A stretch of 61,248 bases of DNA, counting the filler, from Jimgerdemannia flammicorona (taxonomy: Eukaryota): NCBI GenBank assembly GCA_003990765.1. It is 2 parts of 2 records of this genome, joined end to end, with 100 filler letters (N's around TTAATTAATTAA, not from the genome) between each part and the next. Parts side by side here need not be neighbours in the genome. Positions count along the whole stretch, not along the records: positions 30,680 to 61,248 come from RBNJ01000439.1; 1 more part is not named here. The stretch is one strand, 5' to 3'. The translations under genes and the position numbers were made by a program. Below, piece after piece: positions 15,629-59,931 of this stretch (within the stretch, counting starts at the first letter, position 1; each line of letters opens with the position of its first letter). The notes beneath the pieces are model-generated. The model did no database searches, was not told the origin of the DNA, and saw only the letters and a list, made by a program, of their open reading frames with translations.

Positions 15629-15633
<5 letters not shown>

Positions 15634-22098: not shown

Positions 22099-23673
22099 TA
22101 TTATATAGTAATTATTGAGTCCTTCAAATATGTACATCAGATTCTCTTTAAGGTATATCTCTTAGACTAACTCAAATTTATTATAAGTAAGTTCTTGTTG
22201 GAGTACCTTCCCAAGATCTTATAGTCCTTAAACTTCTTATCTTTAAACTATCTTATTATCTCTTTAGATTGCTTGCAAGAAATTGTATATATTGAACTGG
22301 AACTAAAACTGACTTTATTTTGAAGGAAATAAGAGGAGTATTTATACAAAATATAATTCAATAGTTGCTAAAATATAAAGTTAAATATAAATTTCAATAA
22401 CTAAATAAAATACTAGAATATAGAAAACTATAGTTATTGGTACAGATTCCAGTATTAGTATAGATAGTTATACAAGTTCAGAGTGCTGGTAGAATTTGGT
22501 GGTATAGGAAAAGGATGCTGAAAGAATTCTGAGTCATACAGGATAAGAATGCCAGTGGAAGAATTAACTGTTATATAGGAAAAAGATGCTGGCAGAATTC
22601 AGTATAACTAAGAACTTTAAATCAGAATGTTCAGGACTATGGAGGTTTCATCCTCATCATTACTGAAGGAGATGAGATCTATGAATATTTCATTTGTCTC
22701 ATTGTATAGGTCATATGTTTCATATATGTCATGTAGGATGACATCATCACCAATGATGTCATCACATTTAGCAGTAAGAGCTCTCCAATCTATGACATTC
22801 TCTTCCACAAAATAAGGAATAAATGTGGAGTCTTGGGGAGATCTAACCTAGATGCTGGAGCCTTAGAATGCTGAGATCAATCTTTGCAAGAACTGATTTG
22901 AGTTGTTCTGAAGGATGGAATATCAAATTCTTCTACCTTATTATTATTGAGGATAATAGTGGACTGGACCTCTATAGCTACTATGGCTTCTAGTGCATTG
23001 ATATAATGGACTGACAGATCTCTGAAGTCTGAGACTCTGGTATACTCTAAGTTGAGAATCAATTATGGTATATACCTAAAGATCTGATGAATCTTCTTGA
23101 CTATCCTTATTTTATATATATCTATAGGAGTGGCATCTTATAGCTCTTGATGGCTGGCTTGAGAGAATTCCTAGCAGAAGAGGTTTCTTATTCTGTATTC
23201 TTGCCACATCTAGAGGTATTTGATAGCAATGATGATTCTTGTCTCCATTTCATTGTAGTAGAGAATATAATGATAAGGGTCACCAGTACCTAGGTTGATA
23301 CTAGGAGTCCTTGTGGTATAAGTCCTTATGGCTCATTGGATGTCTTGAAATATCCTTTCCTAGACTGAGAGGCCTTGGTGATTCCTTGATCTTGAGGTTT
23401 GGTGAGTAGCAGGTATTTTTTTTATAATAAGTCTTTGAGTTATTTCAGAATTAGTGGGTCTTGTTGAGTTGCTGCTACTGCAGTTCCTTGATCCTTCTTT
23501 TATATTCCTCAAGATATCTGTATTGTAGTCTCAATGACTTACAATTGGTCATTATTACTCATCTTATAGCCTGGGTGAGTTATGCTATATGATCTTCTCA
23601 TGCTTCAATCTGGTAGCTTGTAAGGAATTGCTATCTCTTGTGCTAATATCATCATTCTGAGGTTACTATTACA
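22099..23673 (-). repeat. Family B 3' LTR (1575 bp)
   Basis: Begins tgtaatag after the PPT aggaggaaga (minus strand) and aligns with 29332-30570. TATAAATA near 22340. Confidence 0.88.
22617..23416 (-). pseudogene. Family B LTR(U3)-encoded accessory ORF relic (~265 codons)
   Basis: Reconstructed from both LTRs: ERIFQDIQ(R)AI...EYEIGNLL...RIVKKIHQIFRYIP(Q)LILNLEYTRVSDFRDLS...DDIIGDDVI...acidic end. Stops are C>T/G>A-type; one frameshift in this copy. Confidence 0.7.
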
Positions 23674-24039
23674 TCTTCCTCCTGAATAAGGATCTTCTTA
23701 AATATCCTTATTCATTAGTCCAGTCCTGAAAAATTTGCTGATTTCATAACCTCTGATAGAGGGTTAAAAGGTAGTATTTATGAGCTGGTGTCTTCTCTAG
23801 TATTTTGGTATGATGGTGAAGAGTCATTATCTTCATATAGAGCAAGGGCCTGATTATGATCTTGACTAATCAGTTGATAGTTCAAACTCCTCTAGCTTCA
23901 AAAGTCTCATGGATGAGTAGTTGCTGGTACTATATCCCTTAGAGAATGGTCCAGACAGATTGCCTACTGGTTACAGGACATACTGTTATGATTCACAGAC
24001 TAGAACCTCATGGGTGGTCATCACATTTTACTTCTCTTA

Positions 24040-29331: not shown

Positions 29332-30579
29332 TGTCACATAGTGGTTGCTGAGTTCTTCAAATATGTCAGATTCTCTTCAAGGTATATCTCTTAGACTAAT
29401 TCAAGTTTGTTATAAGCAAGTTCTTATTGGAATACCTTCTCAAGGTCTTATAGTCTTCAAACTTCTTATCTTTAAACTGTCTTGTTATCTCTTTAGATTG
29501 CTTGCAAGGAATTGTATATATTGAACTAGAACTGAAACTGACTTTATTTCAAAGGAAATAAGAGAGGTATTTATACAAAATATAATTAGTTGCTAAGATA
29601 TAAAGCTAAATATAAATTCCAATAACCAAATAAAATACTGGAACACAGAAAACTATAGTTATTAGTATAGATTCCAATATTGGTACAGATGGTTGCACAA
29701 GTTCAGAGTGCTGGTAGAATTTAGTAGTATAGGAAAAAGATGCTGGAAGAATTCTAAGTTATGCAGAATCAGAATGTCAGTGGAAGAATTAACTATTATA
29801 TAGGAAAAAGATGCTGACAGAATTTGATATAACTAAGAACTTTAAAGCAAAATATTCAAGACTATGGGGGCTTCATCCTCATCATTGCTGAAGGAGATAA
29901 GATCTGTGAATATTTCATTTATCTTATCATATAGGTCATGTGTTTTGCATATATCATGTGGAATGATATTATCACTGATAATATTATTACATTCAGCAGT
30001 AGGGGCTCTCTAATCTATGACATTCTCTTCTACAAAATAAGGAACAAATATGGGGTCTTGGGGAGGTCTAACCTAGATGCTAAAGCCTTAGAATACTGAG
30101 ATCAATCCTTGTAGAAACTGATCTAGGTTGTCCTGGAGGATGAGATATCAGAACATTTCTATCTCATCACTATTGAGGGTGATAGTGGACTAGACCTCTG
30201 TAGCTATCATGGCTTCTAGTATATTGATATGATGGGCTAACAGATCTCTGAAGTCTGAGATTCTGATATACTTCAAGTTGGAGATTGACTATAGTATATA
30301 TCTGAAGATCTGATGAATCTTCTTAACTATTCTTATTTCACATATATCTATGAGAGTAGTATCTTGTAGCTCTTGAGGGCTGGCTTGAGGGAATTCCTAG
30401 CAGAGGAGGTTTCCTATTTCATATTCTTACCACATCTGGAGACATTCAGTAGCAATGGTGATTCTTGTCTCCATCTCATAGCAGTAGAGAATATAATGAT
30501 AAGAGTCACCAGTACCTAGGTTGACACTAGGAGTCCTTGTGGAGTGGGTCCTTATGGCTCTTTAGATGTCTTTTTTTTT
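29332..30579 (-). repeat. Family B 5' LTR (partial)
   Basis: Ends ...tgtgaca, followed by act and TGGTACCTATTGGCTGG (PBS). Homologous to 22099-23345. Confidence 0.88.
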
Positions 30580-34959: not shown

Positions 34960-37900
34960 TATGATGGTTGATCTGAATTAGTATGAATCAGAGGAATAAG
35001 ATATTTGATCATAGTATCTGAATCTGATTCCCAAATATAGTATAGCTCAGATAGCAGTCATTTCACAAATGTTAAAGTTTTCACAAATATTAAACTATTC
35101 ATAGATATTAAACTCTTTGATGATTGTCAAAGATTTAACAGATATCAAAGATTTAATACTTGTGAAAGAAATGACTCATAGGAAACATAGTCATAACTTA
35201 GCCATCTTATAGCTAGTGAAACTTGTATAAATAACCCAGTATCTTAGAGTGAATAAAGCCTCAGATCGAAATAGTTCAAAGCAAAGAGATAGCAAGAAAC
35301 TAGTAAGCCTGCAAGCAGATACACTTTGAACTCACCCACTTCTATAACTCCAAAGACTCTGCAAGAGTCAGAACAGTTAAGTATTCAAGATACAGAAGTT
35401 TAACTTACTTTCAAAAGTAAGTATCCACTACATTATAACTTGGTACCTATTGGCTGGTGATTCAAGACAAATCTCTCACTTTTAAGCTGAATAATGAACA
35501 ACTGCCACTACCCAAACAACTATACAAACTGAGCCCCAATACCCAGACAAGATAGATATAAGATCACCAGTATTTTATAGATATATCTCAGATGAATCAA
35601 TCATCACCTTCATTGATGATTTCGAGCATTACACTGCTGTAAGGACCCTGACAGCAGTACAGAAAGTAGCCCTTATGCTCTTTAGCCTATGAGGCCCTGC
35701 AAGAGCAGCATTCATAGCTGCAAACTATGTGAAAAATGATGCCATTGTTACACTGATAGTACAGAAGACCTGGCTTTGAACTACTTACTACATAGATGAA
35801 ATTAAGTAAGCTCTAAAGAATCAGCTCAACACAATATACCAAGGAATGAGTGAAGATCTAAACACATTCTACATAAGAATCTGATACTAGATAATCCTTG
35901 CAGATTATACTAATGCTATCTGAGACCAAGTAGTAGAAGCAACCTTTATAAAAGGAGTCTACCCAGAGATAGCCATGGCTATCTGCTTATTACCAGTAAT
36001 TCTAGATCTGCCACAGAAGGTCACCTATGCTCAGTGATACTAGATAGCCAGACACCCACAAGACCATATGATGGAGAGGGTTACAGGAGTCAGAATCGAA
36101 GTACCCAAGACAATTAGTGTGATCCCTATCATAATGATCAATTGAAACACACCTCAGCCAAAAGCTATAGAGCAGCAAAAGAACAGTGACCCTTTGGAGG
36201 AACTTACTAAGAGGTTTGTAGAAATGACTGCCCACCTGGGAGATATAGTAAAGGAGATCAGAGGAAGAGACCACCACCTTGTTCAGAAGTTTGCTGCCAC
36301 CTCAGACAGAAAGAAAGGTACTTATTATACCTGTGGAGAAGAAGGCCACTACTCTTATAAATGCATGAGTGAAACCAAGCACAAGGTCCAACCAAGTAAT
36401 GCTATTAGAAACAAGGAGTAGACCAACATAATTATCTTCAAAGAAATTGGAGATTCTGATAAAGAAGAATGGGAGGCCTATCCTGCCCAGACCTCTAAGA
36501 AGGATGTTCGCAAGGAACCCTACAAGAGACTGCCAGGAAGACCCAAGAAGAACTCAGTGGAAAAGCAGATGAAAACTGCCACAGAAAGCCAAGTTGAAGA
36601 GATAGACCAAGATATGGAGCTAGAGTAAGTAGTTCAAAATATTATCTGAGAAACCACTCTAGCCAGCAAAGGAGAAAAAGAAAAGAAACTTCACAAGACT
36701 AAGACCTTCAAGTATGATATCTTCAAGGATCTTAGCCAATAAAAGGTCAATAAAACTTTTGGTCAGCTCGCAGAAATCCCAACATTCAGACAGCAAATGA
36801 GGTTTGGACTCACCGAAACAACCAAGAAGCAAGGATGGAAGATAACCAAGGCCAATAACATTCAAGAGGACTCAGGAGAAGAAAGTGAAGACAATTGTAA
36901 AACCTCTGTCTATGCAATATGCCAAATCAAAGATAGAATCTTTGAAGCCATCATTGATACTGGAGCAGAAGGATATCTTCTCAGTAAGAAGGCAGCAGAC
37001 TGCCTAGGTTGGGAGATTGAAGAAGCAACCAAGTTGGTGTTCATCACAACAGATAGTACAAGAGCCACCCCTCTGGGAAAGATCTGAGATATCTCCATCA
37101 AGATTGGAGGAGTAATCATTCCAGTAGATATAATCGTAACTAATGCTACCAACTATGATATCCTTATTGGCAATCAATGGCTTCACAAAGCCAGAGCAGT
37201 AATCAAGCTCAATGCTCAGAAGATGCAAATTACCTATTGGGGACAGAAGATACAAATTTCCATCAATGTCAATAAAGGAGTCTTGCCTGATATAGAGTAA
37301 GAAGAGAGTGAGCAAGAGGAAGCTTATATAGTGACTACTCCGAAGAAGAAAGTAGAATGGATGAGTGAAGAAGAATAGTATAAGAAGATCACAGAAAGCT
37401 ACACACCACAAGGAGTCTGTCCTCATGGGACCAAGATGTACTGTATGGAGTATGTTAATAATTGCTACCAGTGCACCATCAGAATCAAGAAGATCCACCA
37501 GGAAAGAAGACAGAAAGCTCTTGAAAAATAGGTCAGAGAAGAGAAGGAGGAGGAAGATAATGAACCACCAGCCCTCCTGGAGGATAGTGATGATGAAGAA
37601 GAAATCAAGGTCAAGATTTAAAGGACCCACCCTGATATAGTCTTACCAGAATATAAGTTGGAAAATGCAGCTGGAATGGACATCACCACAGTAGAAGAAG
37701 TCATAATAGAACTCCAGACAACCACCCTACTTGCAACTGGACTAGAGATGACTATCTCAAAGGATCATGTCAGAATCCTCAAGACAAGAAGCAGCCTGGC
37801 CAGAAGTGAAATTACTATTGAAGGAGGAGTCATTGATTCTGACTATACTGGAGAAATTCTGCTCATTGCTAGAAATCACAACCCTACAATTCCATTCCCA

Positions 37901-38247: not shown

Positions 38248-39345
38248 ATGACTACTGAGATCTACAACCGCATCCGCGCTGACATTTGGAATGCCATTGT
38301 CAACCGAGCCACACCCCCTCTGCCCCTCATGAATATTCATAGCCTGGCACCCCTCTACTTCGTGGAAGCCCGATGGAACGCCCTGAACATGCTTAGCGAG
38401 GCCCACTGAATCGGACAAATCTCAAGCTACTACCAGATCGGCTGCCTCCTGGAAGATATGGTCAAATACCACCACAATACAGACATTACCCAGATGTCTC
38501 AACACCAGAAGCTCATCGCCCGCAAATATCGAGAACTCTTCTATGAGTACAACACCTTTATCCCCTGCCTCTGAGTTACTACCAGCGAAATGGTTGCTAC
38601 CCTGTCCTATGGCCAAATCGATGACATGATACAAGAACTCAACCACAAGTACCTCGAGTATGTCGAAATCACAGACAGAACCTTCCCATATCCTGATGAC
38701 CACATCCTGCAAATGCCTCAAGTCGGATACACCATGAAGGACATCTACGATATAATCCACTTCGACGAAGATGAAGCAGAAGACAATGATCCCTCTGATG
38801 CTGACATGACCTCTAGCCAAGGATCTCTGCCAACCCTGATCACTCCACCAACCTTGCCGATGAACTTACAACAGTTCATAACTACATACAAGACTTATTG
38901 GGACAATGACCACTGGCACGAATACCAACCCGCGTTCACCCCTGACTACTTCAACTATAATGAAGAGACCGGAGAACACAACCTATACCTCCAAACAACC
39001 CTAGAGATCGAACCAACAACCCCACCACCTGAGTATGAGTGACTCGAACCACAGCCGCCAGCTTACTACAACCCCACGACTCATAGTGCTGTAACTTATA
39101 GAAGGTATGCAGACAGCGAATCCGATGAAAGCGAAGACAATACACCCATCCTTCACTCACCAATACCTTATCCAGCATATAAAACAGACGATGCTATCCT
39201 GTGGGATGGAGATGAAGTCCCAATGTATTACTACCTCAGCCAACAAGGAGAAGTTATTCGCGAACCACTCTTCCTAGACGACTACTTTATCAGAGATGAT
39301 GCAATCGATGGTGATGTCATCGAAGACTACCCAGATAGTGCCTAA
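38248..39345 (+). pseudogene. Family A LTR(U3)-encoded ORF, copy 2 (5' LTR)
   Basis: 365 codons. Three TGA stops, each at a position that is CGA in at least one other copy. Confidence 0.8.
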
Positions 39346-40047: not shown

Positions 40048-40993
40048 TTTACAATCCAATTCCGCTTTAAGACGCTTCCTCACCCCGCTACAAACCCCTC
40101 TGCGAATTCCTACAAGTTGGTATAAAGCCCAACCTCTGAACTGGAATTTATCTGAACAATCGGACAATCTGGAGAGAATTGAACCTGATGTACAAGGACA
40201 ATTTGACCTCCACATCTGCAACAAGTGGGATAAACTTCATTCAAAGAAAGAAGTACTCAAGTTAAATCAGCAAATAGGCGAAACCCTATTCATCGAACTC
40301 CTTGCACTACACCCAGCAAGTCAAGATGAAGAAGGTCTTATTGAAGTCTTCTTTACTCTTCTCAACAAGAGTTTTGTCAGCTCCACAAATCCGAGCAACC
40401 TAGGACAACCAGCAGCAGTCTTTCTAGCCTTAGTTTCTCACGAAGCCCAAGCCTCTGTAGCCAAGTGGCTCAACTCTACCAACTTTCACCGCACCAGGAC
40501 CAAGACTGCATTATACTACTGATTCCAGAACAGCAAGGCCCGCCATATTCTTAAGGAAGAAGCAAGAGAAATCCTTCATCAACTACCTAACCCCGAACCT
40601 GAAGCAGGCCCTACTACAGCCCTACCTGAATCTGAAACCAACACCGAACCTGAACTTGACTTTGAATTAAGTCCATCTGAAATCAGATATACAACTGATT
40701 CTGTCTACTTTGACGCTGAGCAAACCCAATTACACAGGGACCAAACCGAAGAAGAGGAGGAGTATCTCACCGAATTCGATCCCGGATACACCACCGAAGG
40801 AGACATACATCCATCAGGATAGAATACACCTACACAGCAACAAACAGCTATCTATCAAGCTCTCACTCCAGATCCACAACTACTACTCCAGCAACTTACA
40901 TAGACCCAAAGAACCCCATCACACTCTGCACCAGTACCTCAAGTAGTACCAGTAATACCACTACCAGCAGTCCAACTGTCTCCAGTAAACAAC

Positions 40994-43468
40994 ATGGTGA
41001 ACCAACAGATTCTAGACCTTACAGCCCAAGTAGCTATAATGGCAGCAACCATTACTGCCTTAGCTGAACAGACCCGACCTACCAAAAATCTGAGCCTACC
41101 TACCTTCAATGGTACTGCACAAGAAGTCCAAAGCTTCATTAGTGTAGTTGACACCAACTTTGAAGCCAATCAATGGACCAATGAGCAAGTTGCTGACCGC
41201 GTTCTGACAAACAATCAAGACCACACCCTGGAACAACTCTTTGCTACAACTACAGCCTATGTCCACCGAGTTGTTACATTCTTCCAAGGACCTGCCGAAG
41301 AATGGTGGTGAACTCTTCCTGAAAAACCCCTCATATGGGATATCCGACCTGCAGTAGTTACTCAGAATGCAGCAAACAATGCCCCAGGATATGGAGCCCA
41401 TCCTGCAGCACCTGGACTCAAACAACTCATGATTGCTCAATATCGCAGCGAGACCATGATTGCCGAATCTCGAGTAAAACTCCGCAACCTCAAATTTGAT
41501 GTACATGGCAAAGAAGAATTCGAAACCTTCTGTACAAAACTCGAGTCACTTCTGAACACTGTTGGCCTAGGATATATTGCCAATGATGAAGCACGAAATG
41601 GTACAAGAGCAGACCATTTATTTGATGCCCTGCCTGAATGGCTTATTAGAAAAATCTGAGAACAAGGCCACCCAGTTGGTTGCGATCACCAACAATGGTG
41701 CCTAGCAAGAATCAAGACTATGGTCAAGCGAATCCTAACAGTTGGACCAATTCTGCCCTGAAGGCAATTCAACAACAAGGAAAAGACTTGGACTAAGAAA
41801 GAAGAACCCAAGCATGAAGCATCCCAAGCTCCCTCCACATCCACCTCTTGGACACCCAGAAATCATGAACCCACCCAGCCGAGTACCTTCAAGAAACTTA
41901 CTGAAGGTGAAAGGAACGAACTTCAAAGAAGCGGAGCATGCTTCTATTGCCGAAAGACAGGACACATGGCCAGTGTCTGCCCCAACTGAAAACCCCAAAC
42001 AGCAACATGAGCAACTGTTACTACTCTGCACCACCTCAACAACCTGACCACCAGAACACTAGACTTTGTCAAGTTAAGACAAACTGCTAAGGCCCCAACC
42101 AAAGGAAGTCAAAAAGCAGCTGGATATAACCTGTATGCAGCCAAAGAAGCTACAGTTTCTAACTGAGAAGTCAAACAAGTCTATACAGGAATCAGCATCC
42201 AAATCCCTGAAGGATATATTGGAAGAATATGCTGTCGCAGCAGTCTAGCATTGAAAGGACTCTCAGTAGAAGGAGGAGTCATTGACAAGGATTACACAGG
42301 CAAAATTATTATCCTCATCCGAAACCACAGTTGGACACCCTTCAAGATCCCTATTGGCTTCTGCATCACCCAGATCCTATTCGAAAAAATCAAGTCAACC
42401 CTGACAGTCAAGGAAGTCCCTGAACTACTGCCCACCATCCGAGGATCCAAAGGATTTGGCTCATCAAACAAGGCCCCAGCCCAACCTACTGTGAGCAAAG
42501 AAGAACAATTCTATAAGAAGATCGAAGATAGATATGTACCAAGTGGCCAATGCCCTCATGGTATTGGAATGTACTCTTCCCGAATGATTGATGATTGCTT
42601 CTCTTGTGTCAATTAACTGGCTCAAAGAAGAACCAACAGAAGAAAGGCTCCTACAACCGAAATCACCACAATTGGATCAGACAAACTGCTCACTCTTAAG
42701 GCTTTTGTCAACGGAGCACCTGTCAAGATTATGATAGACAGTGGTGCCTCAGGCAACTTCATCAATGAGGAAACAGCCAACAGACTCAAGGTCTTCACCT
42801 CCCCAGTACAGCAAACTCAAGCAGTTGCTACAGCTGATGGAACCTCACATGTTATTAGCAAAGAAGTCCGCAATCTACCCTTCCGAATTGGCGACTACCG
42901 AGTACATATTACCCTCCAAATCGTACCACTTCCTGATAATGAAATCATCCTTGGGACTCCATGGTCAAAACAAGAGAACCCCATGATCGATTGGGTAAAC
43001 CATTCTCTGACCATCAAGAAAGGACGCCACAACTTCAAACTATAAGGCGAAAAGGACTCACTCAACTCTAGTGACCCTGGACCAAAGATCACCCACATCA
43101 ACAAGCTACAACTCAAGAAATTGGCCAAGAAATGCCCTCTCTTCGCCATCTCCATCTGACCATCCAAAGGAGAACCCGAGAACTCCAAAGAAGATTTTTC
43201 CAAAGTTGACAGCCATGTCAGACCACTACTCCAGAAGGTCCAAGACATATTTCCAAACTGAACCACCGAACCACCTACACCTGTCATCATAAATGACCAA
43301 GAAGAATATGAAGTTGAACAAATCCTCAACAAACGTGGCAACAAGAACCATCCTGAGTACCTTGTCAAATGGAAAGATTACCCGATCCATGATGCAACCT
43401 GGGAACCCAAGACCAATCTTCAGAATGCTACCGACCTAGTTCAGGAATATGATTCCTTAAACAACTAG
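40994..43468 (+). pseudogene. Single-frame Gag-zinc knuckle-dUTPase-CPHG-protease-chromodomain polyprotein
   Basis: All domains share one frame: LPTFNGT, CFYCRKTGHMASVC at 41939, AAGYNL/GGVIDKDYTG/RGSKGFGSS, MIDSGASGNFI at 42731, EYEVEQIL...WEP, TAG at 43466-43468. Internal stops are mostly C>T-type. Confidence 0.92.
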
Positions 43469-44182
43469 AACCAAATACTCTGCACCTATCCATACATACT
43501 ATATATTACTCTCCCGAACATTATAACTATCACAAACCAAATCAAGAACTCAGCAAAACAAGACAAGAATACCAAATCCCTGGAAAAATAGCAAAACTGA
43601 AAGCAAGCCTATTCTCCCCATACCACTGGTGGGAAATGAGGCGTAGACATTTAAGAAGATTCCTTAGAGGAAATTCTCCAGCAGTGATTGACGTCAGAAT
43701 CACTTCCGGCACACGGCATCGAACACACGACCCTTTAATGTGTGAATCCAACGCATTAGGCAACTGTACTACGAGCATGCCACTTTCTGAGAAAATGGAC
43801 CTTACCAGACTTTTGATCTTCCAAACGGTGTAACAACACTAGAACAAATTAGAAGGCCCTGATGAGGACGTCAAAAGCTAAGAAGGGGAGAGTTGTAAGC
43901 GCACAACCTCCAAGCCACCGAAAATACATGTCACCCTCTGAACAAAGCCACTGAAATTACACGCGACCTCTGAACAAATCTGGAAATCACCTGCTTGATC
44001 ACGAAGCTGAGTCAAACCGAAGTCACAGCGCACAAAGCTGAGTCAATACGAAGTCACGGAATACAAGATCTACATAAACGGAACCTTACTAATCAGGACC
44101 AAATGCATATATACCGAGCACCAAGACACATCGAATTAGAGAACCAAAACAAACAACAACCACAACTTCCAAACACACAAAC

Positions 44183-45280
44183 ATGACTACTGAGATCTAC
44201 AACCACATCCGTGCTGACATTTGGAATGCCATTGTCAACCGAGCCACACCCCCTCTGCCCCTCATGAATATCCATAGCCTGGCACCCCTCTACTTCGTGG
44301 AAGCCCAATGGAATGCCCTGAACATGCTTAGTGAGGCCCACCGAATTGGACAAATCTCAAGCTACTACCAGATTGGCCGCCTCCTGGAAGACATGGTCGA
44401 ACACCACCACAATACAGACATTACCCAGATGTCTCAACACCAGAAGCTCATCGCCCACAAATATCGAGAACTCTTCTACGAGTACAACACCTTTATCCCC
44501 CGCCTCCGAGTTACTACCAGTGAAATAGTTGCTACCCTATCCTATGGCCAAATCGATGACATGATACAAGAACTCAACCACAAGTACCTCGAGTATGTCG
44601 AAACTACAGACAGAACCTTCCCGCACCCTGATGACCACATCCTGCAAATGCCTCAAGTCGGATATGCCATGAAGGACGTCTACGATATAATCCACTTCGA
44701 CGAAGATGAAGCAGAAGACAATGATCCCTCTGATGCTGACATGACCTCTAGCCAAGGATCTCTGCCAACCCTGATCACTCCGCCAACCTTGCCGATGAAC
44801 TTACAACAGTTCATAACTACATACGAGACTTATTGGGACAATGACCACTGGTACGAATACCAACCCGCGTTCACCCCCGACTACTTCAACTATAATGAAG
44901 AGACCAGAGAACACAACCTATACCTCCAAACAACCCTAGAGATCAAACCAACAACCCCACCACCTGAGTATGAGTGACTCGAACCACAGCCGCCAGCTTA
45001 CTACAACCCCGCAACTCATAGTGCTGTAACTTATAGAAGGTACGCAGATAGTGAATCCAATGAAAGCGAAGACAATACACCCATCCTTCGCCCACCAACA
45101 CCTTATCCAGCATATGAAACAGACAATGCTATCCTGTGGGATAGAGATGAAGTCTCAATGTATTACTACCTCAGCCAACAAGGAGAAGTTATTCGCGAAC
45201 TACTCTTCCTAGACGACTACTTTATCAGAGATGATGCAATCGATGGTGATGTCATCGAAGACTACCCAGATAGTACCTAA
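44183..45280 (+). pseudogene. Family A LTR(U3)-encoded ORF, copy 3 (best preserved; one TGA)
   Basis: The 264-aa ORF continues after the TGA at 44975 (CGA in copy 1) to TAA at 45278-45280, giving 365 codons. Unknown function. Confidence 0.85.
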
Positions 45281-45469
45281 ACCTATAATTAGTCTAGCAG
45301 TCATAGTATAGATAGATTAGCCTTGTACGACATGACTGTGAACTGACTCAGCAGTCAGACGATCTCTTGATATGTCAGATCACACTTGTACTATGTGACT
45401 GCATTCCGACTCAGTAAGGCACTTAGTGCTACATCCATATCTAGCATAGTCCAGATAGCCCCTCACTAG

Positions 45470-45477
45470 TATAAATA
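45470..45477 (+). promoter_or_regulatory. Putative TATA box of the family A LTR
   Basis: TATAAATA followed by a C-tract, conserved in all five A LTRs, with AATAAA ~135 bp downstream. This places the ORF in U3. Confidence 0.6.
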
Positions 45478-48400
45478 CCCCCTCCCCCAGACCTCAGAAT
45501 CTCAGACTCGAACAGACTTGAACAATCTGAACACAACTTCTGAGCACTTCCCTACAATATCCCTTTACACAAATACTCCTAGTATAGCAATATCATGAAT
45601 AGCAAATAAACCTATTTCATAACCCATAAACCACTCTTAAGTAAATCTGTTCCCTGTTAGGTCCTACTCCTAACTCCGTCACGAAATTTCCTAATTGGGT
45701 ATTGTCTGCAGCGATATACCAATTCAACTAAGCTGGTCTTAGTTTCTTGAACTTCCTGAAATACGGAAAATCCTGAACATCCAGAACTAGTCTGCAAAAG
45801 GACTTTGGTTGAGACGTCAACCCAATCTTGAAATCAATAAGCGTAGAGGACGTACTCCATACGAAATTGATCTTGACCATAAGAAAACGGTCTTCCAGAA
45901 CATCCAGAATATCCAGAAAACCTTCTAGAACTACGTAACGGCTACCCTAAAAAGTAACCCTCTTACAAAGGATCATAGAAGTCAAGAATTTGGAGGAAAC
46001 AAAAAGAGGAAAGAAAGGATTTGGATCTATAGGAAGAGGAGTATTCACCAGTACCAAGATCACCAAACTGAAGCATAAGAAGAAGGAAATCACAAACAAG
46101 TACAGCTATACCATTGGAAATAAATTTCCACTCAAGGAGAAATTCAAGAAAATACTCTATAAATTCAAGGATGTCTTTGTCATGAACTTCAAGGATATTA
46201 AAGGAAAGACTCCACACTACTATCATAAGGTAGATACTGGAGACACTGAACCAATTTACCAGAAGGCAAGACCTGTCCCACCAGCCTACCAAGAATAGCT
46301 CAGAGAAGAAATCAAGCAGATGGAAAAAGCCAGTATTATTAAAGAAGCCAGTAGCCCCTGGTCTTCACCAGTTATACTAGCCCCAAAAAAAGAAAGCAAG
46401 CTTGGAGAATTTGCCCCAAGACTCTGTGTTGACTACAGAAAGCTCAATGTGGTTATCAAGAAGGATCACCAATCACTGTCCCTCATCAGTGACATCCTTA
46501 TAATACTAGGAGATGAAGTACAGTACTATAGCACCTTGGACTTATACTCAGAATTCCACCAAATTGGACTCACAGAAATGGCAAGTGAAAAGTCAGCCTT
46601 CATCACTCCTGACAGAACCTATATTTACCTGTGAATGCCATTCGGGATGTGTAATGCACCAGCAAGCTTCCAGCAAATGATGAACAAAATCTTCTGCTAT
46701 GATATAGAAAGATGGATGATGGTTTATATTGATGATGTAATTATCTACAGCAAGATACCTGAGGAATATCTGCAGCACATACAGCAGATAATGGAGAGAC
46801 TAAGACAATATGACCTTTACATCAAACCCAAGAAGTGTAAGTTTGCAGAAATTGAGATCTTCTACCTTAGCTATGTTATCAATTGAGATGGAACACATAC
46901 AGACCCCCTCAAGATACAAGCAGTAGCAGCATACCCAAGGTCCACTACTGTTACAGAAACCCAAGCCTTCATGGGACTTATCTCCTACTATCACAGATTT
47001 ATTAGAGGATTCTCTAACATCACAGATCTAATCTATGAACTCAATAGGAAGGACACCAAGTTTCAGTGGACTGGTAGACAATAAAAAGCATTTGATGAAC
47101 TCAAGGTCAGACTGACCCAGGCACCTATTCTTAGATGACCCAATTGGACTCAAGAATTCATCCTGCAGACAGATGCAAGTGCACAGGAACTAGGAGTAGT
47201 TCTAGCTCAAAAGGAAGACAAAAAAGAGTACATCATTGCATACCTTAGCTACAGAACCTGAGGAGCTGAAAAAGAATATGAATCCTACAAGTTGGAATGT
47301 CTTGCAGTCATCTGGGCTATAGAAAAGTTCCACTACTATCTGGCTGGAAGACACTTCATCATTCAGACAGACCACTCAGCTCTCACCTGACTACTGACAA
47401 CTGGATAACCTAAAGGAATCTACACCAGATAGATAATGAAGCTACAAGCCTACAATGTAACCATTGTACACCACCCTGGAAGAACAAATTCCAATGCAGA
47501 TGCTCTCTCATAAACATCCCAAAATACCTCCAACCAACAAATTAATTATAAATAAGAAGCTCTACTATAGAATTATCACATATCTGGGACAGCAAAAGAT
47601 GCCCCAACATCTGGAAGAATAGATACAAATGATTATCAACAAAACATGGAAACAATTCAAAACCAACAGAGAAACACTGAAGAAAGGAAAACTACTGGTC
47701 ATACCAGAACACAAGAAGGAGTAAGCTATGAAATCAGTATATAAACTTGGCTATCTAGGAGGAACAAATATATATAACAAGGCAAGAAGAATGATATAGT
47801 GATCAGAAATGGAGGAAGATATCAGACAATTTGTCAAAATCTGTAACAAATGCCAGAAACAAAAGCAAGACCAACAAAACCAAGCTCTGGAATCAGCATA
47901 CATAGAACCAGTACCATTTGCCCATATAGCAATGGATGTAATTGGCCCTCTACCTTTGACCTTGACTGACAACTGATATATCATTATCATCATAGACCTT
48001 TTTACAAAATGGATAGAAGCAAGACCCCTTAAGGAAGTCAATGTACAGTCAATTGCCTATTTCTTTCACAAAGAAATCATCTGCTGGTTCAAGACTCCAA
48101 TGCAAGTAACTACAGATAGAGGAACAGAATTCATGAACCAGTTCTTTGAGATTCTCTATAAGAAGTACAAAATCTAGCACATTCAGACCACAGCCTATCA
48201 CTCTCAAGGAAATAGACAAGTAGAAAGAACCAACAAGACCCTCAAGAATATTATCACCAAGATCTGTGATAACTATGAAAACTGGAATCATTATCTGCCA
48301 ATAGCATTATCTGCTCTCTGGGATATCAGATTACAAAGTACCTACTTTATCTCTCAAGAAATACTGTTTAGAGAAGAAAGTTCTTAAGAAACCCTATTGT

Positions 48401-48730
48401 CCAATAGAGATGCTATATGAAAACATATGGATCAAGAAATATAGAGACTACACCAAATCAGGAAGAAGGTCAAAGATTATATAACCAAGGTACAGGTACT
48501 ACAATAGAAGAATGTGGAAAAGACCCACAAACCCTTGGAGATTATCAAGATAGGAGACAAAGTTCTGGTGTATCATAATATAGTAGAAGCTTCATAGTCA
48601 TAAAAACTGGAGCCCAAGTGGGAAGGACCTTACCTTGTGCAAGATATAAAAGAGACTACCTTTTGGCTACAAAAACTCTCAGGCACAATCATCCCTACTA
48701 CCATTTATCAAAACCAACTCAAGAGGTACC

Positions 48731-49192
48731 ATAACTAACCAGAGAAGTATTGCCTCAGCTCTCAAGATCACTAGTGCTGCACAGTAAGCCATAGAAAGAC
48801 AATGGTGCACCACCAAACCACCTGCTATGGAGGAATCCTTTGATAGTATCCAGAGTATAGTCCAGACACACTTGTCATGAATTTCACACTTTAAGGCCTA
48901 TCAGAACTGAACCGAGTTTCAGGAATACTTCAAACTAGGATAACTACTAAATTTGCAGCTAGAGATGGGAAAAGAAGACTGGATTAGAGAGTGCCAGCTT
49001 TCCCATATTCAGATCACAATTACCAAATAAATCAACAAGTTGTTCAAGGATAATGAGCCAGCCTTAGCCTACTTTCGAGGAGTAGTCCCAGGAAATTTTG
49101 GATATATCAAAAGACATCATTAGGAGAATGTAATGATATAAATTGTATAGTATAAGGAGATACAAATTATAGAAGCATGGGAGTTTGAGTAA
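48731..49192 (+). pseudogene. Family C post-integrase accessory ORF relic (~153 codons)
   Basis: Frame intact from ATA (ATG in C2 at 58858) to TAA at 49190: QEYFKLG(Q)LL...ITITK(R)INKLFKDNEPALAYFRGVVP. All stops are transition-derivable. Confidence 0.72.
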
Positions 49193-49711
49193 ATAGGATG
49201 TTTCAGAGATAAATCACCTATTCAGGAGGAAGTTGTGACAGTTGATCTGAATTAGTATGAATCAGAGGAATAAGACATTTGATCGTGGTATCTGAATCTG
49301 ATTTCCAAATATAGTATAGCCCAGATAGCAGTTATTTCATAAATATTGAAGTTTTTACAAATGTTAAACTATTTACAGATGTTAAACTCTTCGATGATTG
49401 TTAAAAATTTAATAGATATCAAGGATTTAACACTTGTGAAAGAAATGACTCATAGGAAACATAGTCATAACTTAGCCATCTTATAGCTAGCAAAACTTGT
49501 ATAAATAACTCAGTATCTTAAAGTGAATAAAGTCTCAGATTGAAATAGTTCAAAGCAAAGAAATAGCAAGGAACTAGTAAGCCTGTGGGCAGATACACTT
49601 TGAACTCACCCACTCCTGCAACCTCAAAGACTCTGTGAGAGTCAGAACAGTTAAGTATTAAAGATACAGAAGTCCGACTTACTTTCAAGAGTAAGTGTCC
49701 ACTATGTTACA

Positions 49712-50021
49712 ATGAATATATATTCAATAAAAGACAAAAACTGATAATAAATCCTGAGCAGGAGATAGATGCTTATTTGAAAAGTAAAACTATTAAATTT
49801 TAAGTAGAAGTTGATATATTATCTTAGTGATAAGTGAGTTAGAAATTCAAGTTTCTCTAATTGATTTAATTGATTGAAAAATTAGATCCATAGTGGGGAT
49901 TTCTAAATTTAGTAAAAATGGCATATATATATAACTACTTAACTATTATAGTAACAAGTATTCTAATTGAGAGAGTTTTTTTAAATAGTAAAAATCTTAT
50001 ATAATTTTACTATATAAGATA
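49712..50021 (+). pseudogene. hAT transposase C-terminal dimerisation domain relic with a probable intron
   Basis: EIDAYL...DILS(W)(W), then gtgagt...tag, then FLNLVKMA...YLTIIVTSILIERVF. Matches the hAT consensus FPxLAxMARDYLAIPATSVPxERVFS after transition mutations. Confidence 0.75.
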
Positions 50022-53000
50022 TATAATAGTTGATCTGAATTAGGAATATAAATCAAAAGAATAGACATTTGATTATAGTATCTAAATATGATTCTCAAAT
50101 AAGTATAGCCTTATAAATAGCAGTCATTTTACAAATATAGAAACTTTAACAAATGTTAAAATTTCACAAATATTAAGATTTCACAGATACATATTAAGAA
50201 TCTATATTTGTAAAAAAAGTAACTTATAGAAAATATAGTTATAACTTAGCCATCTTATAGCTAGTAAATTTATATAAATATTTTAATATCTAGAGTAAAT
50301 AAAATCTCAGATAAAAATAGTTTAAAGTAAAGAGAAAGCAAGAGAACTAGTAAGTCTGCAGATAGATATACTTTGAACTCATCCACCCCTATATTCTGAG
50401 GACTCTATAGAGTCAAAGAAGATCAAGTTTTTAAAATACAGAAATCTGATATATTTATATAGTTATGTGTTCACTATATTACAACTTAGTGCCCATTAGC
50501 TGATGATTCAAGATAAATCTCTCACTTTCAAGCTAAATAATGAACAACTACTATTACTAAACTAAGACACCCAAATAAGATAGATATGAGACTACCAGTA
50601 TTCTATAGATATACTTCAGATAAATCAATTATTACCTTCATTGATAATTTCAAGCAATATGCTACTATAAGAATCCTGATAGCAAAACAACAAGTAGCTC
50701 TTATACTCTTCAGTCTCTGAGACCCTACAAGAGCAGTATTCACAGCTGTAACTTATATAGGAAATGATGATAATGCTGTACTGACAGTACAGAAGATCTG
50801 GCTCTAAGCTACCTACTATATAGATAAGATCAAGCAAGCTCTAAAGGATCAGCTCAATACAATATACTAAGAAATTAGTAAGTATCTAAACATATTCTAC
50901 ACTAGAATCCAATATTAGATAATTCTTATAGATTATACTACCACTATCTGAGATCAAGTAGCAGAGGGAATCTTTATAAAAGAAGTCTATCCAGAGATAG
51001 CCATGTCTATCTACTTATCATCAGTAGTCCTAGATCTAGTACAAAAGATCACCTATGCTTAGTAATACTAGATAGTCAGACATCTCTGAATTGAAGTATC
51101 TAAGATAACCAATATAATCTCCACTATAGTAATTAATCAAAACACACCTCAGCTAAGAGTTACTGAGTAGTAGCAAAATAGTGACCCTATGGAGAAACTA
51201 GCTAAGAAGTTTACTGAAATGACTGTCTACCTAGGAGATGTAATAAAAGAAATCAGAGAAAGAGACTATCACCTAGTTCAAAAGTTTGCTGCCATCTCAG
51301 ACAAGAAGAGAGATATCTGCTACATCTGTAGAGAAGAAGGTCATTACTCATATGAATATATAAGTGAGACTAAGTATAAGGCCCAGCTAAGTAATACTAT
51401 ATAAAACAAGAAACAGATCAATACTATCACCTTCAAAGAAATTGGAGAGTCTGATGAAGAAGAATAGGAGACCTACTCTATATAGACTACTAAGAAAGAT
51501 ATTTATAAGAAACTCTACAAGAGACTACCAGAGAGACTTAAAAAGAACTCAGTGGAGAAATAAATAGAAATTACTATAGAAAGCCAAGTTGAAGAAATAG
51601 ATCAAGATATGGAGTTGGAATAGGCTATTTAAGATATTATTTAAAGAACTACTCCAACCAGTGAAAGAGAAAAGAGAAAAAGCTTTGCAAAATCAAAACT
51701 TTTAAATATGATATCTTTAAGAACCTCAGCTAATAAAAGATCAATACAATCTTTAACTAGTTGGCAGAAATATCTACATTTAGACAGCAAATAAGATTTG
51801 GACTTACTGAAACAACTAAGAATTAAGACTGAAAAATAACTGAGACCAATAATGTTCAGAAAAATTTAGAGAAGAAAGTAAAGATAATTATAACACTTCT
51901 GCCTATACAATCTATCAAATTGAAGATAGAATCTTTGAGGTCATTATTGATACTAGAGTAGGAAGATGTCTCCTCAGTAAGAAAGTAGTAGACTATCTAA
52001 ATTGGGAGGTTGAAGAACCAATCAAGTTAGTATTCATTATAGTAGATAAAACAAGAGTCACACTTCTGAAAAAGATCTGAGATGTTCTTTTCAAGTTTGG
52101 AAGAGCAACTATCTCAGTAGATGTAATCATAATTAATACTACTAATTATAATATTCTCATTATCAACTAGTGGCCTCATAAAGTCAGAGTAATAATTGAC
52201 CTAGATGTCCAGAAGATGCAAATTACCTATTATGGACAAAATATGTAAATTTTTATCAATATCAATAAAGAAGTACTCCTCAAAATAAAGAAAGAAGAAA
52301 GTAAGCAAGAAGAGACCTATATAGTAACTACTCAGAAAAAGAAGAAGAAAGTTAAATAGATAAGTAAAGAAGATTGATATAAGAAGATTATAGAAGAATA
52401 TATACTATAAGAAGTCTGCCCCCATAGGATCAAGATATACTATATGAAGCATATCAATAATTATAATTAGTATACTGGCAGAATCAAGAAGATCTATTAT
52501 AAAAGAAGACAGAAGGCTCTCAAGAAACAGGTAAGAGAAGAAAAGAAGGAAAAAGAGGATAATAAACCACCAGCTCTCCTTAAAGACAGTAATGATGAAG
52601 AGGAAATCAAGGTCAAGATTCAAAAGATCTATCCTGATACAGTTCTACCAGAATATAAGTCAGAGAATATAGCTAGAATAGATATTACAATAGTAGAAGA
52701 AACTATACTTGAACTCTAGACAACTACTCTACTTATAACTGATCTAGTGATAGTTATTCTAAAGGACTATATCAGAATTCTCAAAACAAGAAGTAGTCTG
52801 GCTAGGAGTGAGATTGTCATTGAAGGAAGAGTTAGAAGTTAGCAGAAACAGAGAAAGAAAGGAAAGAATTTAGATCTATTAGAAGAGAAGTATTCACCAG
52901 TACTAAGATCACTAAACTAGACCACAAGAAGGAAAAAACTACAAATAAGTATAACTATACTATTGGAAATGAATTTCCACTCAAGAAAGAACTCAAGAAG

Positions 53001-53932
53001 ATACTTTATAAATTTGAGAATATTCTGGCTATAGATTTCAAAAGATGCTACATTATTACTATGATATAGATATAGGAGATACTAAATCAATTTATCAAAA
53101 AAGTAAGACCAATTCCATCAGTCTACTACAAATAGCTCAGAAAAGAAATCAAGCAAATGGAAGAAGCTGATATCATCAAAGAAGCTAGTAGTTCTTAGGC
53201 TTTACCAGTTATACTAGTCTCAAAAAAAAGGAAATAAGTCAGGAGAATTTACTTCAAGGCTCTATACTGATTACAGAAAGCTCAATCTAGTTATCAAGAA
53301 GGATTACCAACTACTATCTCTCATCAGTGATATCCTTATAACTCTAGGAGATGAAGTATAGTATTATAGTACCTTGGACTTATATTTAGGATTCTATCAA
53401 ATTAGTCTCATAGAAGTAATAAGTGAGAAGTCAGTCTTTATTACTTCAGATAAAACTCATATTGATCTGTAAATACTATTCAGAATATATAATATACTAG
53501 TAAATAATGAATAAAATATTCTACTATAATATGGGAAAATAGATGATGGTTTATATGGATAATATAATCATTTATAGCAAGATACTAGAAGAGTACATAC
53601 AATATATTCAGCAGATGATAGCTGAGAAAGTATGGTCTATATATTAAGCTCAAGAAGTACAAGTTTGTAGAAATTAAGATCTCCTATTTTAGCCACATCA
53701 TCAACTGAGATAAAACATATATAAACTCTCTCAAGATTCAAGCAATAGTAGCATATCTAAGACCTACTACTGTTACTGAAGCCTAAGCTTTCATGGGACT
53801 TACCTTATACTACTGTAGATTTATCAAAGAATTCTCTAATATCATAGATCTAATCTATAAACTCAATAAGAAGGATATTGAGTTCTAATAGACTAATAGA
53901 TAATAAAAAGCATTTGATGAGCTCAAGATCAG

Positions 53933-55134
53933 CCAGTGTCCCTTTCTCCACTATATTACCAGTCACAAGGTTTGGTAGGCAATCTTCTGAGTCCTCTTTC
54001 CCCTATTATTACCCCCTCTACCTCAGGTTGATTTGCTGTGCCTGCATGGGTATAGTGGGAGGAGAGCAATGGTGATGAGTTACTTCTTTATCAGTATCAG
54101 ATCAGTATCTTTTCTACTTTTTCATAGTTTCTGGTACCTTTGGCTATGTCTAGAGTACATCCATTTTGGTGCAACATCTTCTTCTTTTTGCCATCACCAA
54201 TAAGGTACTGCCTTGGTACATCATAAGTTATATAGGGAGTCAGCTGATCTTGGGTGTCAAGTACTCAGTGTAGGTTATCTGCAAGTCCTTAGTACCTGTG
54301 GTGGGGCCCTCTGACTTTGGCGAGCTTCCCAGTAAGTACAGTTCTGACATAGGTGAGGTGTTGTCAGGATGGGAGGAGAGATGGCCATCACAGATAGGAG
54401 GATGGATGATAACAGTGAACCAGTGGAGTGCCAGGCTGGGAGCAGTCATTGGGGCTAGGGTAGACAATATTTCAGTGGGGCCTTTTGATTGGCTGGTGGG
54501 AGGTGGGGTGGTATAGGGGCTGGCATTCTGGCTGTACCCAACTAGAACCAGGAGCTGACATGGCAACATGATCAAGGTCCACAGGCTTGGGGAGTGGGGC
54601 CTTTCTCATTTGGTAGTATCCAACTGGAACCAGGAGCTGACATAGTAATGTGATCAAGGCCTGCAGGCTCAGGGAGTGGGAGTGGGGTCTTTTCAAGCCC
54701 TAGCCCATATGTAAGTCCTTTGAGGAAGGTGCTGTATATAAGTTCTTTACTCATCCACTTTGAATCCACTTTGCTCTCTGTTGGTTAGTTGGGGTTTTTT
54801 CTTTACCTTGGGCTTTTTTTTAGAGTTTGGGAGGCTATTCTTTATTTAGTCCCGGTGCTGCTAGATCTAACATATAGGTGTGCTCTCACATATAAACAAT
54901 GATCCAGCCCTGGTAAGCAGACAAGTCTAGTCTATATCATTGGGGTCAATGTAGCCAGTGTTTGATAGATATAGCTAGAGCAGTAGGACTGCTGGACAAT
55001 TTAGTAGTCTAGATTAATGGGGGGATATTATTCGGTGGGTAGTGGGGGAGGGTTTTGGCCTATATAGTCTAGGTTCCCTTCTAATAAAAATCCATGGGAC
55101 TATGAGTCCATTAAAAAAAAAAAAAAAAAAAAAA
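53933..55134 (+). mobile_element. 1.2-kb retroposed (TPRT-type) insertion of unknown origin
   Basis: 16-bp TSD ATGAGCTCAAGATCAG (53917-53932 and 55135-55150), AATAAA at 55083, 22-A tail. Internal ~80-bp duplication (54535/54617). Confidence 0.9.
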
Positions 55135-55282
55135 ATGAGCTCAAGATCAGACTGATCTAAGCACCTATTCTCAGAAGACTCAATTGGACTCAAGAATTCA
55201 TTTTGTAAATAAATATAAGTATATAAGGACTAGGAGTAGTCCTAGTTCAGAAGAAAGACAAAGTAGAGTATATTATTACATA

Positions 55283-57355: not shown

Positions 57356-59931
57356 GCATATCTCAGCTGAGAAATCTGAGAAGCTGAAAAGAAATATAAA
57401 TCCTATAAGTTGGAATACCTTATAGTCATCTAGATTATAGAAAAGTTTTACTACTATCTTACTGATAGATACTTCACTATTCAGATAGATCATTTAGCCC
57501 TCACTTGGCTACTGACCACTGGACAACCAAAAGGAATATATACTAGATAGATTATGAAGTTATGTATAAGCCTATAATATAATTATCATACACTACCTTG
57601 AAAGAATCAATACTAATACAGATACCCTCTTATAGAACACTCTAAAGAACTCTCAACTAATAAATTAACCATGAATAAAGAGCTCTACTATAGAATTATT
57701 ATCTATCTGAGTTAGTAAAAAAAAAACTCCCAATATCTAAAAGAATAGACATAAATAATTATCAACAGAATATGGAAATAATTTAAAACTGATAGAAAAA
57801 TACTAAAAAAAGAAAAACTACTAGTTATACTTGAATACAAGAAGGAGTAAATAATGAAATCAGTATACAAACTCAGTTATCTAGAAAGAATAAATACTTA
57901 TGAAAAAGCAAAAAGAATAATATAGTGGTCAAGAATGGAGAAAGATATCAAATAATTTATCAAGACCTATAATACATAAATATCAAATATAGAAATAAGA
58001 TCAATGAAATCAGACCCCAGGATTAGTATATAGATCTAGTACCCTTTACCCACATAGCAATAGATATAATTAGTCCTCTACTCTTGACTTTAACTGACAA
58101 TCAATATATTATTATTATTGTAGACCTTTTAACAAAATAGATAAAGGCAGAACCTCTCAAAGAATCCAATGTATAGTTAATTACTAATTTTTTCTATAAA
58201 GAAATTATCTGCCAATTCAAGACTTTAATATAAGTAACTGTAGACAGAGGAACAGAATTCATAAATCAGTTCTTCAAGGTTCTCTATAAGAAGTATAAGA
58301 TCTAGTATATTCAGATTATAGCCTATTACTCTCAGGAAAATAAATAAGCAGAAAGAATCAATAAGACTCTCAAGAATATCATTGCTAAGATCTGTAATAA
58401 CTATAAAAACTAGAATTACTATCTGCTAATAGCATTATCTACTCTTTGAGATATTCAATTATAAAGTACCTATTTTACTCCTTAGGAGATATTATTTAGA
58501 GAAGAAATTTCTCAAGAAACTCTATTATCTAATAGAGATATTGTATAGAAATACATAGATATAGAGATATAGAGATTATATCAAATTAGAAAGAAGGCTG
58601 AGAATTATATAACTAAGGTACAGATACTATAATAAAATAATGTAAAAAAGATTCACAAGCTCTTAGATATTATCAAAATGAGAGACAAAGTTCTAGTATA
58701 TCAGAATATAATAAAAACTTCATAGTTACAAAAACTAGAGCCTAAGTAAGAAGAATCTTACTTATATAAAATATAAAAGAAACTACTTTTTAGTTATGAA
58801 AACTCTCAGATACAATCATCCTCACTACTATTTATCAAAACTAACTCAAGAAGTATTATGACTAACTAATGAAATATCACTACAGTTCTCAAGATTACTA
58901 GTACTACACAATAAGCTATAGAAAGACAATAGTATACTATCAAGTCACTTACAATAGAGGAATTCTTTGATAGTATCCAAAGTATAATATAGATACATAT
59001 ACTTATCCTGAATCTTACATTTTAAGATCTATCAGAACTAGACCAAGTTTCAGAAATACTTTAAGTTGAGATATATAGCTACTGAATTTACAGTTAGAGA
59101 TAAAAAAGAAAGATTGGATCAGAGAGTATCAGCTCTATCACACTCAGATCACTATTGCTAAATGAGTAAATAAGTTATTTAAAGATGATGAGCCAGCTCT
59201 AGTTTACTTTTAAGAAGTAGTTCCAGAAGACTTTAGATATGTTAAGAGGTACTATTAGGAGAATATAATAATACAAATCATATAGTATAAGGAGATATAA
59301 CTTGTAGAACCTTGGGAGTTTGAGTAAATAGGATATTTCAAAAATAAATCACCTATTTAGGAGAAAGTTATAATAGTTGATCTGAATTAGGAATATAAAT
59401 TAGAGAAATAGACATTTGATTACAGTATCTGAATTTAATTCTCAAATATAATATAGTCTTATAAATAGTAGTTATTTAACAAATATTAAAATTTCACAAA
59501 TATCAAGATTTTATAAATGTTAAATCTTGACAATTATTAAGATTTTACAGATATCAAGGATCTATACTTATGAAAAGTAACTTATAGAAAACATAGTTAT
59601 AATTTAGCTATCTTATAGCTAGTAAACTTATATAAATATTTCAATATCTAGAGTAAATAAAACCTTAGATCAAAATAGTTCAAAGTAAAGAGAAAGTAAG
59701 AAAATGAGTAAACCTATAGGTAGATATACTTCAAACTCACCTATCTCTATATTTTGAGAACTTTGTAAAGTTAAAGAAAATTAAGTTTTTAAGATATAGA
59801 AATCTAATATACTTATATAGTTATATATCTACTATATTGATAATTCTATCAGAAATTCTGTTAGAACTTTTATTAGCTTATTATTATATATATAATAATT
59901 TATTATAATTTTACTATAATATAATATAATA

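Follow-up and report, generated by a model that had tools for sequence, protein, structure and literature searches.

The locus raises the question of whether a short frame between integrase and the polypurine tract (PPT) of one Ty3/gypsy family, here called C, is the same gene as the frames inside the LTRs of two neighboring families, A and B, and how one gene came to occupy both sides of the PPT. An earlier note on this DNA had proposed that a single gene moves across the PPT and that LTR length follows its absorption into U3. We analyzed a window of 61,248 nucleotides, the whole stretch of DNA under study, from Jimgerdemannia flammicorona, together with further copies from the genome and relatives among public and metagenome proteins. 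Extra ORFs of LTR retrotransposons mostly come without a function, and soluble ones are poorly described.

Carrier elements in the window

Two contigs of the 231-Mb, repeat-rich genome meet at the N gap of the window (30580-30679). The first 15.5 kb consist of two LINE-like elements and the remainder of nested Ty3/gypsy elements (Table 1). Family A lies on the minus strand at about 22099-30579, the C1 element spans 34960-49711 with family B inserted inside it, and C2 is located at about 50008-59843. The carrier C is a Ty3/gypsy LTR retrotransposon with the order LTR-PBS-gag-PR-RT-RH-IN-PPT-LTR and a target duplication. The order gag-PR-dUTPase-RT-RH-IN without a chromodomain is found in A and C, while B has gag-dUTPase-PR and a chromodomain at the end; we take these domain names from recognized motifs rather than from a library scan. 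The dUTPase is located 3' of the protease in A and C and 5' of it in chromoviruses, namely B and a further family, E (window A, B and C1; L217). The LTR lengths given by the earlier note hold, with 478 bp in C against about 1575 bp in A and 2074 bp for each LTR of B.

Table 1 Coordinates of the accessory ORF and of the elements that carry it, counted along the window.
Feature	Position	Strand	Remarks
C1 accessory ORF remnant	48731..49192	+	153 codons, start codon decayed, 8 internal stops
C1 integrase core and GPY/F-type C-terminus	47880..48738	+	No chromodomain; left end approximate
C1 PPT	49219..49233	+	Sequence identical to family A PPT
C1 3' LTR	49234..49711	+	478 bp, without ORF
C1 5' LTR	34960..35437	+	PBS follows; 90% identity to C1 3' LTR
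C2 copy of accessory ORF	58858..59327	+	Two frameshifts and many stops
C2 3' LTR	59369..59843	+	Right end approximate
Family A ORF in U3 of 3' LTR	22617..23416	-	About 270 aa, acidic tail, broken
Family A ORF in 5' LTR	29842..30572	-	Cut by assembly gap at 30580
Family A 3' LTR	22099..23673	-	About 1575 bp; PPT at 23674-23689
Family A integrase-PPT gap	23690..24030	-	Non-coding; site of the ORF in C
Family B ORF in U3 of 3' LTR	44183..45280	+	365 codons, acidic tail, one stop
Family B ORF in 5' LTR	38248..39345	+	Start set by offset from 3' LTR
Family B chromovirus nested in C1	37959..45967	+	LTRs 37959-40032 and 43894-45967, 5-bp target duplication, RT-to-integrase deleted

The C frame is a decayed gene

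The frame in C1 overlaps the integrase stop (TAA 48736-48738) by 8 nt. Position, overlap and presence in both copies agree with the earlier description of a frame of about 153 codons at the integrase stop of C1 and C2, but neither copy is open: C1 has eight internal stops and ATA at the start codon position, where most copies have ATG, and the ORF region of C2 is frameshifted and spread over three frames. The motifs quoted earlier are indeed in frame at 48731-49192, and three of the eight internal stops of C1 are the residues bracketed in them. The frame also lacks an acidic tail, as had been stated. None of the 30 copies closest to C1 has an open frame. The copy at 48731-49192 is a pseudogene.

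Several measurements bear on its former coding function. Among 30 C copies the terminal stop is the only in-frame stop that is fixed, while each of the other five frames contains 3-10 fixed stops, and transversions at the three codon positions amount to 0.025, 0.008 and 0.036. Between C subfamilies the ratio of 0-fold to 4-fold transversions is 0.16 in the coding frame, as opposed to 1.6 and 8.8 once the frame is shifted. As controls, gag, RT, RH and the IN core gave ratios of 0.04-0.21, while the integrase C-terminal 100 codons gave 1.1-1.2. The latter fail as a selection control because the C subfamilies barely differ there, a failure that revealed a step in divergence at the ORF.

Repeats of this genome are damaged by C-to-T decay, most strongly at CpG (0.53) and then at CpA (0.29). 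In the younger C subfamily the frame is open in 18 of 43 full-length copies, all from outside the window, compared with 0 of 42 older copies, the loci behind both counts coming largely from protein searches and thus being biased towards open frames. Intact C copies therefore do carry the open frame that the earlier note had asked for. The ATG of the C ORF is conserved, and full-length relatives of 153 aa are present among metagenome proteins. The frame is very probably a decayed copy of a real Ty3/gypsy accessory gene, which encodes a soluble all-helical core of ~140 aa and is carried by five families, ahead of the PPT in C and E and within U3 in A, B and D.

The ORFs of A, B and C share a domain without a library match

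Pairwise comparison of the C1 ORF with the A and B ORFs gave no significant similarity (phmmer E 2.3-8.8). A profile built from 21 A and 30 B copies scored 24 C copies at a median of 14.2 bits, which 0 of 1000 shuffles reached; 6 of 30 C copies and 7 of 28 A copies had been dropped from this comparison as frameshifted. With an A+B profile made from intact sequences and without C, intact C-type proteins from outside the window scored 19-33 bits against shuffle maxima of 8-9, but decayed C1 itself scored 4.4 bits, below its shuffle maximum of 8. The check proposed earlier, detection of the C ORF by an A+B HMM, thus succeeds for intact proteins and fails for C1. A profile of three outside proteins alone (P0007-P0009) gave 38 bits for C1, 24-30 for A and 26 for B, a link that is transitive rather than blind, as these proteins were retrieved with a profile containing A, B and C. 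That the LTR ORFs of A and B and the ORF of C are the same domain is therefore borne out by profiles and intact copies and not by C1 in pairwise comparison.

A search of 1.84 billion representatives yielded nine proteins, all unnamed, and two further searches yielded 19 and 14, none with a Pfam domain. The accessory protein gave no match above threshold in Pfam, PHROGs, PDB sequences, phage genomes or IMG/VR, nor did the B protein in an Atlas search. A literature search, whose scope excluded most subscription papers, Repbase and GyDB, found no description of it. This is a real accessory gene family without a library match. Two candidates were set aside: a weak C-profile match within the LINE (5665-5790, E 0.04-0.075), which we take as chance, and L219, rejected as a chance match to an unrelated protein.

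Lying between pol and the 3' LTR, the ORF of C and E would by position suit an env-like membrane protein. The earlier note had remarked on this position and on the lack of a signal or transmembrane segment, and hydropathy bears it out: in 8 of 8 representatives no hydrophobic segment was found (maximum Kyte-Doolittle 19-mer 0.16-0.88, and 0.16 in the intact C-type copy). Together with the all-helical, soluble model described below, this makes an env-like protein extremely improbable.

LTR length follows placement in five families

Genome searches that started from distant members added two families, D and E, with at least 150 matches each. Family D has an LTR of 2.36 kb with the ORF 216 nt inside both LTRs, and no chromodomain in the stretch read. 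Family E is a chromovirus with an LTR of 0.82 kb; its ORF, about 280 aa long with an acidic tail, is missing from the 5' LTR and is placed before the PPT, with its stop abutting the PPT and a TATA box about 75 nt upstream of its ATG. No TATAAATA was found before the ORF in C. Tandem repeats follow the ORF in the D LTR (L190), and a long proline- and acid-rich frame precedes D gag (L213 3500-4200).

The ORF therefore precedes the PPT in C and E, while A, B and D have it in U3. LTRs without the ORF measure 0.47-0.48 kb (C) and 0.82 kb (E), and those with it about 1.57 (A), 2.07 (B) and 2.36 kb (D). The claim that LTR length tracks placement thus holds in all five families, partly because the ORF itself adds 0.8-1.1 kb, but the reason given for it, absorption of one gene into U3, is not supported by the comparison of A and C below. 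Acidic tails are present in A, B, D and E and absent in C. Tail and placement are independent, because E is pre-PPT and yet tailed. In the A/E group (P0026, P0077, P0017, L208) a conserved P-x-x-L-N-F motif lies at or close to the end of the acidic tail; in C and the P0009 family the protein terminates in acidic-aromatic motifs.

The layout of C recurs outside this genome. In a metagenome contig of the P0008 family (L218) the ORF has an ATG that overlaps the end of integrase and a stop next to the PPT, and the ORF of the P0009 family is also integrase-adjacent. In both C and the distant L218 family the ORF starts in the +1 frame, its ATG overlapping the end of integrase; a +1 frameshift could therefore fuse the domain to integrase as a targeting module that replaces the chromodomain, which is lacking from A, C and D in the stretches read; a public protein of 455 aa (P0074) is such an integrase-ORF fusion. 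However, the integrase C-terminus of P0074 is replaced by an alternative-frame peptide and the fusion occurs in one of nine members of its cluster, so it looks like a single-copy frameshift. Furthermore, B and E have both chromodomain and gene, the ORF is far from integrase in A, B, D and E, and the ATG is conserved. We regard an integrase extension as very unlikely.

Element and ORF trees disagree

RT and integrase trees group ((A,C),D) against (B,E), the B RT being taken from a B-like copy as the B element of the window has none. The ORF tree instead places A, D and E together (91/95) and C with P0008 and P0009 (83/85). An A+C clade, as expected if A and C carried the same gene as sister elements, is rejected for the ORF (AU p=0.0009), as is B+E (p=0.019); the ORF tree has long branches, for which the tool warns of false joins. 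The A protein shares 40% identity with the protein of chromovirus E and 10-14% with that of C, although A and C have the same PPT and the same PBS and are sisters in pol.

We looked for a remnant of a C-type ORF in the integrase-PPT gap of A and rejected it: all six frames contain fixed stops, there is no codon signal, and five younger copies scored at or below 0 bits. In the integrase tree A is nested inside lineages with short integrase-adjacent ORFs, which suggests that a short pre-PPT gene was ancestral for A and C. A has kept the PPT of C, has an E/D-like protein and has a gap without the domain; A would therefore have lost the short C-type gene and acquired the version of another family. 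The transfer proposed by the earlier note, one gene moved across the PPT and absorbed into U3, is contradicted for A versus C by the same three observations, the common PPT, the non-sister proteins and the lack of a domain trace in the gap. From the sequences, the difference between A and C appears to be due to replacement and not to a shifted boundary.

In a boundary shift, the resident gene would stay fixed while the PPT/U3 border crosses it and the LTR lengthens or shortens. Such shifts would explain why LTR length follows placement in five of five families, and in E and L218 the ORF stop does abut the PPT. The closest case is D and E, which have about 250 nt of post-integrase DNA in common (79-81% identity) with related ORFs downstream, the ORF following the PPT in D and preceding it in E. 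For this pair a boundary shift is possible. However, D and E integrases are merely 35-36% identical, so their common DNA itself requires a swap, and in A and C an identical PPT accompanies proteins that are not sisters, with no domain remnant in the gap of A. As a general account we consider boundary shifting unlikely.

The gene and U3 probably form a 3' cassette

The step in divergence at the ORF points to swapping within C as well. Between C subfamilies (five younger versus two older elements), 4-fold transversions reach 0.40 in the ORF compared with 0.014-0.071 in gag, RT, RH and IN, and silent divergence of ORF and U3 is about 10-fold above that of gag/pol. Differences between younger copies and C1 per 100-nt bin number 0-3 before the ATG, 8-16 in the ORF, 18-32 with gaps in U3 and 2-7 past the TATA region. 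The break is thus located at the ATG of the C ORF, persists through U3 and drops after the TATA region. Over 73 copies, whose pairs are not independent, distances correlate with rho 0.84 between ORF and U3 and 0.37 between IN and ORF; linkage alone would give such co-variation of ORF and U3.

Mosaic segments also connect families. About 50 nt around the TATA box are common to C and D at 88-91%, 50 nt around it are common to A and E at 80%, and the post-integrase segment of about 250 nt is common to D and E although their integrases have diverged as described above.

Overall, gene and U3 probably move together as a 3' cassette that elements exchange, for which template switching between co-packaged RNAs is the simplest route; the short integrase-overlapping form would be ancestral in the A/C lineage, and A would have lost it and taken an E/D-type version into U3. 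Template switching is part of established reverse-transcription biology. Between two co-packaged RNAs, it could swap ORF and U3 while gag-pol and R-U5 are retained. The 3' end of a retroelement, accessory gene plus U3, is here seen to evolve apart from gag-pol, with the break mapped.

Predicted structure and possible functions

An AlphaFold model of the accessory protein consists of seven helices and is all-alpha (pLDDT 86); mean pLDDT exceeded 70 in two of five full-length models and one of five domain models. Foldseek against PDB and BFVD returned nothing at E<=0.001. For the C-terminal domain (residues 55-149), VIA ranked a photosystem I subunit first (Z 6.2, rmsd 2.9, 64 aligned). Judged by title and known fold, about 26 of the 50 VIA rows belong to helix-turn-helix (HTH)-type DNA-binding or sigma domains, five of them ParB/KorB/SopB entries; their Z of 3.5-4.5 and rmsd of 2.5-8.8 fall in the range that the tool calls common for helical bundles, and Z reaches down to 3.1 among the HTH superpositions as a whole. 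Residues 56-150 overlay weakly on ParB-type domains with a similar order of helices (Z<=3.9). In the Atlas, the C-type protein matched RegA first (0.93, with 148 common features, below the 170 typical of true members), followed by DUF6192, DUF3102 (0.90) and DUF1016_N/ParB-HTH (0.89) clusters, all with low feature counts. ParB/KorB/SopB and DUF3102/DUF1016_N HTH domains are therefore neighbors by helix overlay and Atlas rank, but no Pfam profile of ParB, DUF3102 or DUF1016_N matched above its curated cut-off, and PF11300 found nothing in the genome. All 12 representatives have K or R at position 100, which falls in the third helix, and the core is not net basic (K+R 16, D+E 19 in the C-type protein). 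The models make an HTH core possible.

An HTH-like core, acidic tails, an internal TATA box in E and co-travel with U3 lead us to suggest, tentatively, that the accessory protein may be a nuclear regulator of the LTR of its own element. The HTH-like core would bind U3 DNA and the acidic end would recruit host machinery, as foamy virus Tas does. In C, translation could start by stop-start coupling where integrase ends or could rely on a subgenomic RNA, and in E the ORF could use its own TATA box. Against this stand the weak fold support, with a photosystem I subunit as top VIA row, a blank Foldseek search and the RNA-binding repressor RegA as best Atlas family, as well as a core that is not basic overall and the tail-less protein of C. 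The best overall explanation, an accessory gene with a swapped U3 cassette and an LTR regulator, falls somewhat short of an even chance. It is doubtful whether one may go further and see a Ty3/gypsy clade with its own HTH LTR regulator, an independent Tas analogue, in which gene and U3 target would be exchanged as one cassette among chromoviruses and non-chromoviruses and could lie to either side of the PPT. If the LTR-regulator reading is true, these gypsy elements would encode a regulator of their own LTR, as complex retroviruses do. The protein family occurs on five element families and has natural open alleles, which allows a direct test of whether ORF alleles act on the U3 type that accompanies them.

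The same data can be read as RNA binding, where the protein would bind element RNA and control its export, translation or packaging like Rev or Cer1 CERV, the latter a precedent in an LTR retrotransposon in the excerpted text of PMC10309623. Atlas ranks RegA translation repressor clusters first for the C-type protein and seventh for B, and the invariant basic residue fits RNA as well as DNA. However, the RegA feature counts are under the bar of the tool, RegA (PF01818) gave no Pfam match and is absent from the fold-search rows listed, and no arginine-rich motif is seen in the alignments. RegA has an alpha/beta fold, in contrast to the all-alpha accessory model. An RNA-binding regulator therefore seems improbable.

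We also weighed a counter-defence factor that would oppose host methylation or deamination in the manner of foamy virus Bet or plant anti-silencing proteins, with diverse alleles that would be kept and swapped because the host target changes. The C-to-T decay of the repeats, stronger at CpG than at CpA, and the dUTPase that is also carried by A, B, C and E would fit, as would amino-acid-changing transversions of 0.065 in the ORF, far above the 0.001-0.016 in gag/pol. Silent sites are equally more diverged, so positive selection is not indicated (ratio 0.16), and Pfam, PHROGs, PDB sequences and phage genomes showed no similarity to a known inhibitor. This unlikely reading also overlaps with that of an LTR regulator if the protein acts by binding the LTR.

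Comparison with known systems

Sense additional ORFs between pol and the 3' LTR (aORF-3S) are mostly env-like with transmembrane segments, according to the excerpts of PMC7264820 at hand. The accessory gene resembles them as a sense ORF after pol that is kept across copies and has no assigned function; in C it lies between pol and PPT in most copies and is conserved as coding sequence. Unlike them, its protein is soluble and is also found wholly inside U3, and the excerpts of PMC7264820 contain no LTR-internal case. In the parts of PMC5408684 consulted, the ORF3s on dUTPase-bearing gypsy elements of bdelloid rotifers are GDSL esterases, DEDDy exonucleases, and env or transmembrane proteins. 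They too are family-specific, common to distant retroelement lineages and accompanied by dUTPase in pol, but the accessory protein matches no Pfam family and crosses into the LTR.

Among retroviruses, foamy virus Tas/Bel1 is described in the excerpts of PMC517496 and PMC7828637 as a DNA-binding LTR regulator with an acidic activation domain, encoded between env/pol and the LTR and expressed from an internal promoter. Tas, from a vertebrate retrovirus and with no link in sequence or fold found here, could serve as a working analogy only. MMTV sag and lentiviral nef are long ORFs in U3, within the 5' portion of the LTR (PMC2664473). As in A, B and D, the U3 ORF makes the LTR long; however, these retroviral proteins are unrelated to ours, and in the present case one protein family is found at U3 as well as pre-PPT sites. 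Fungal dUTPase-bearing Ty3/gypsy elements (PosPlaTy3) have the dUTPase at varying places in pol, and a figure legend of PMC2864245 names an 'add. ORF' of unassigned function. This ORF may bear on the novelty of the accessory gene; a text search of one supplement of that paper for the accessory protein found nothing.

Other features of the window

The LINE-like pair at 57-15454 is arranged head-to-head, has endonuclease and RT motifs, is 69% identical and shows strong opposite GC skew. The B element at 37959-45967 is without RT, RNase H and most of integrase, yet its LTRs are 96% identical; a copy at 15629-17472 seems to have the same deletion, which suggests a non-autonomous subfamily. A fragment at 17600-18250 (+), in a B-like 3' end, contains a D-like integrase end followed by roughly 250-300 nt of the post-integrase segment common to D and E (70-79% identity); a small ORF or RNA signal may account for this segment. 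Finally, two palindromic AT-rich inserts, possibly MITE-like, lie at 56573-56845 (273 bp, 79% self-complementarity), within a decayed B LTR, and at 59948-60033 (87 bp, 80%).
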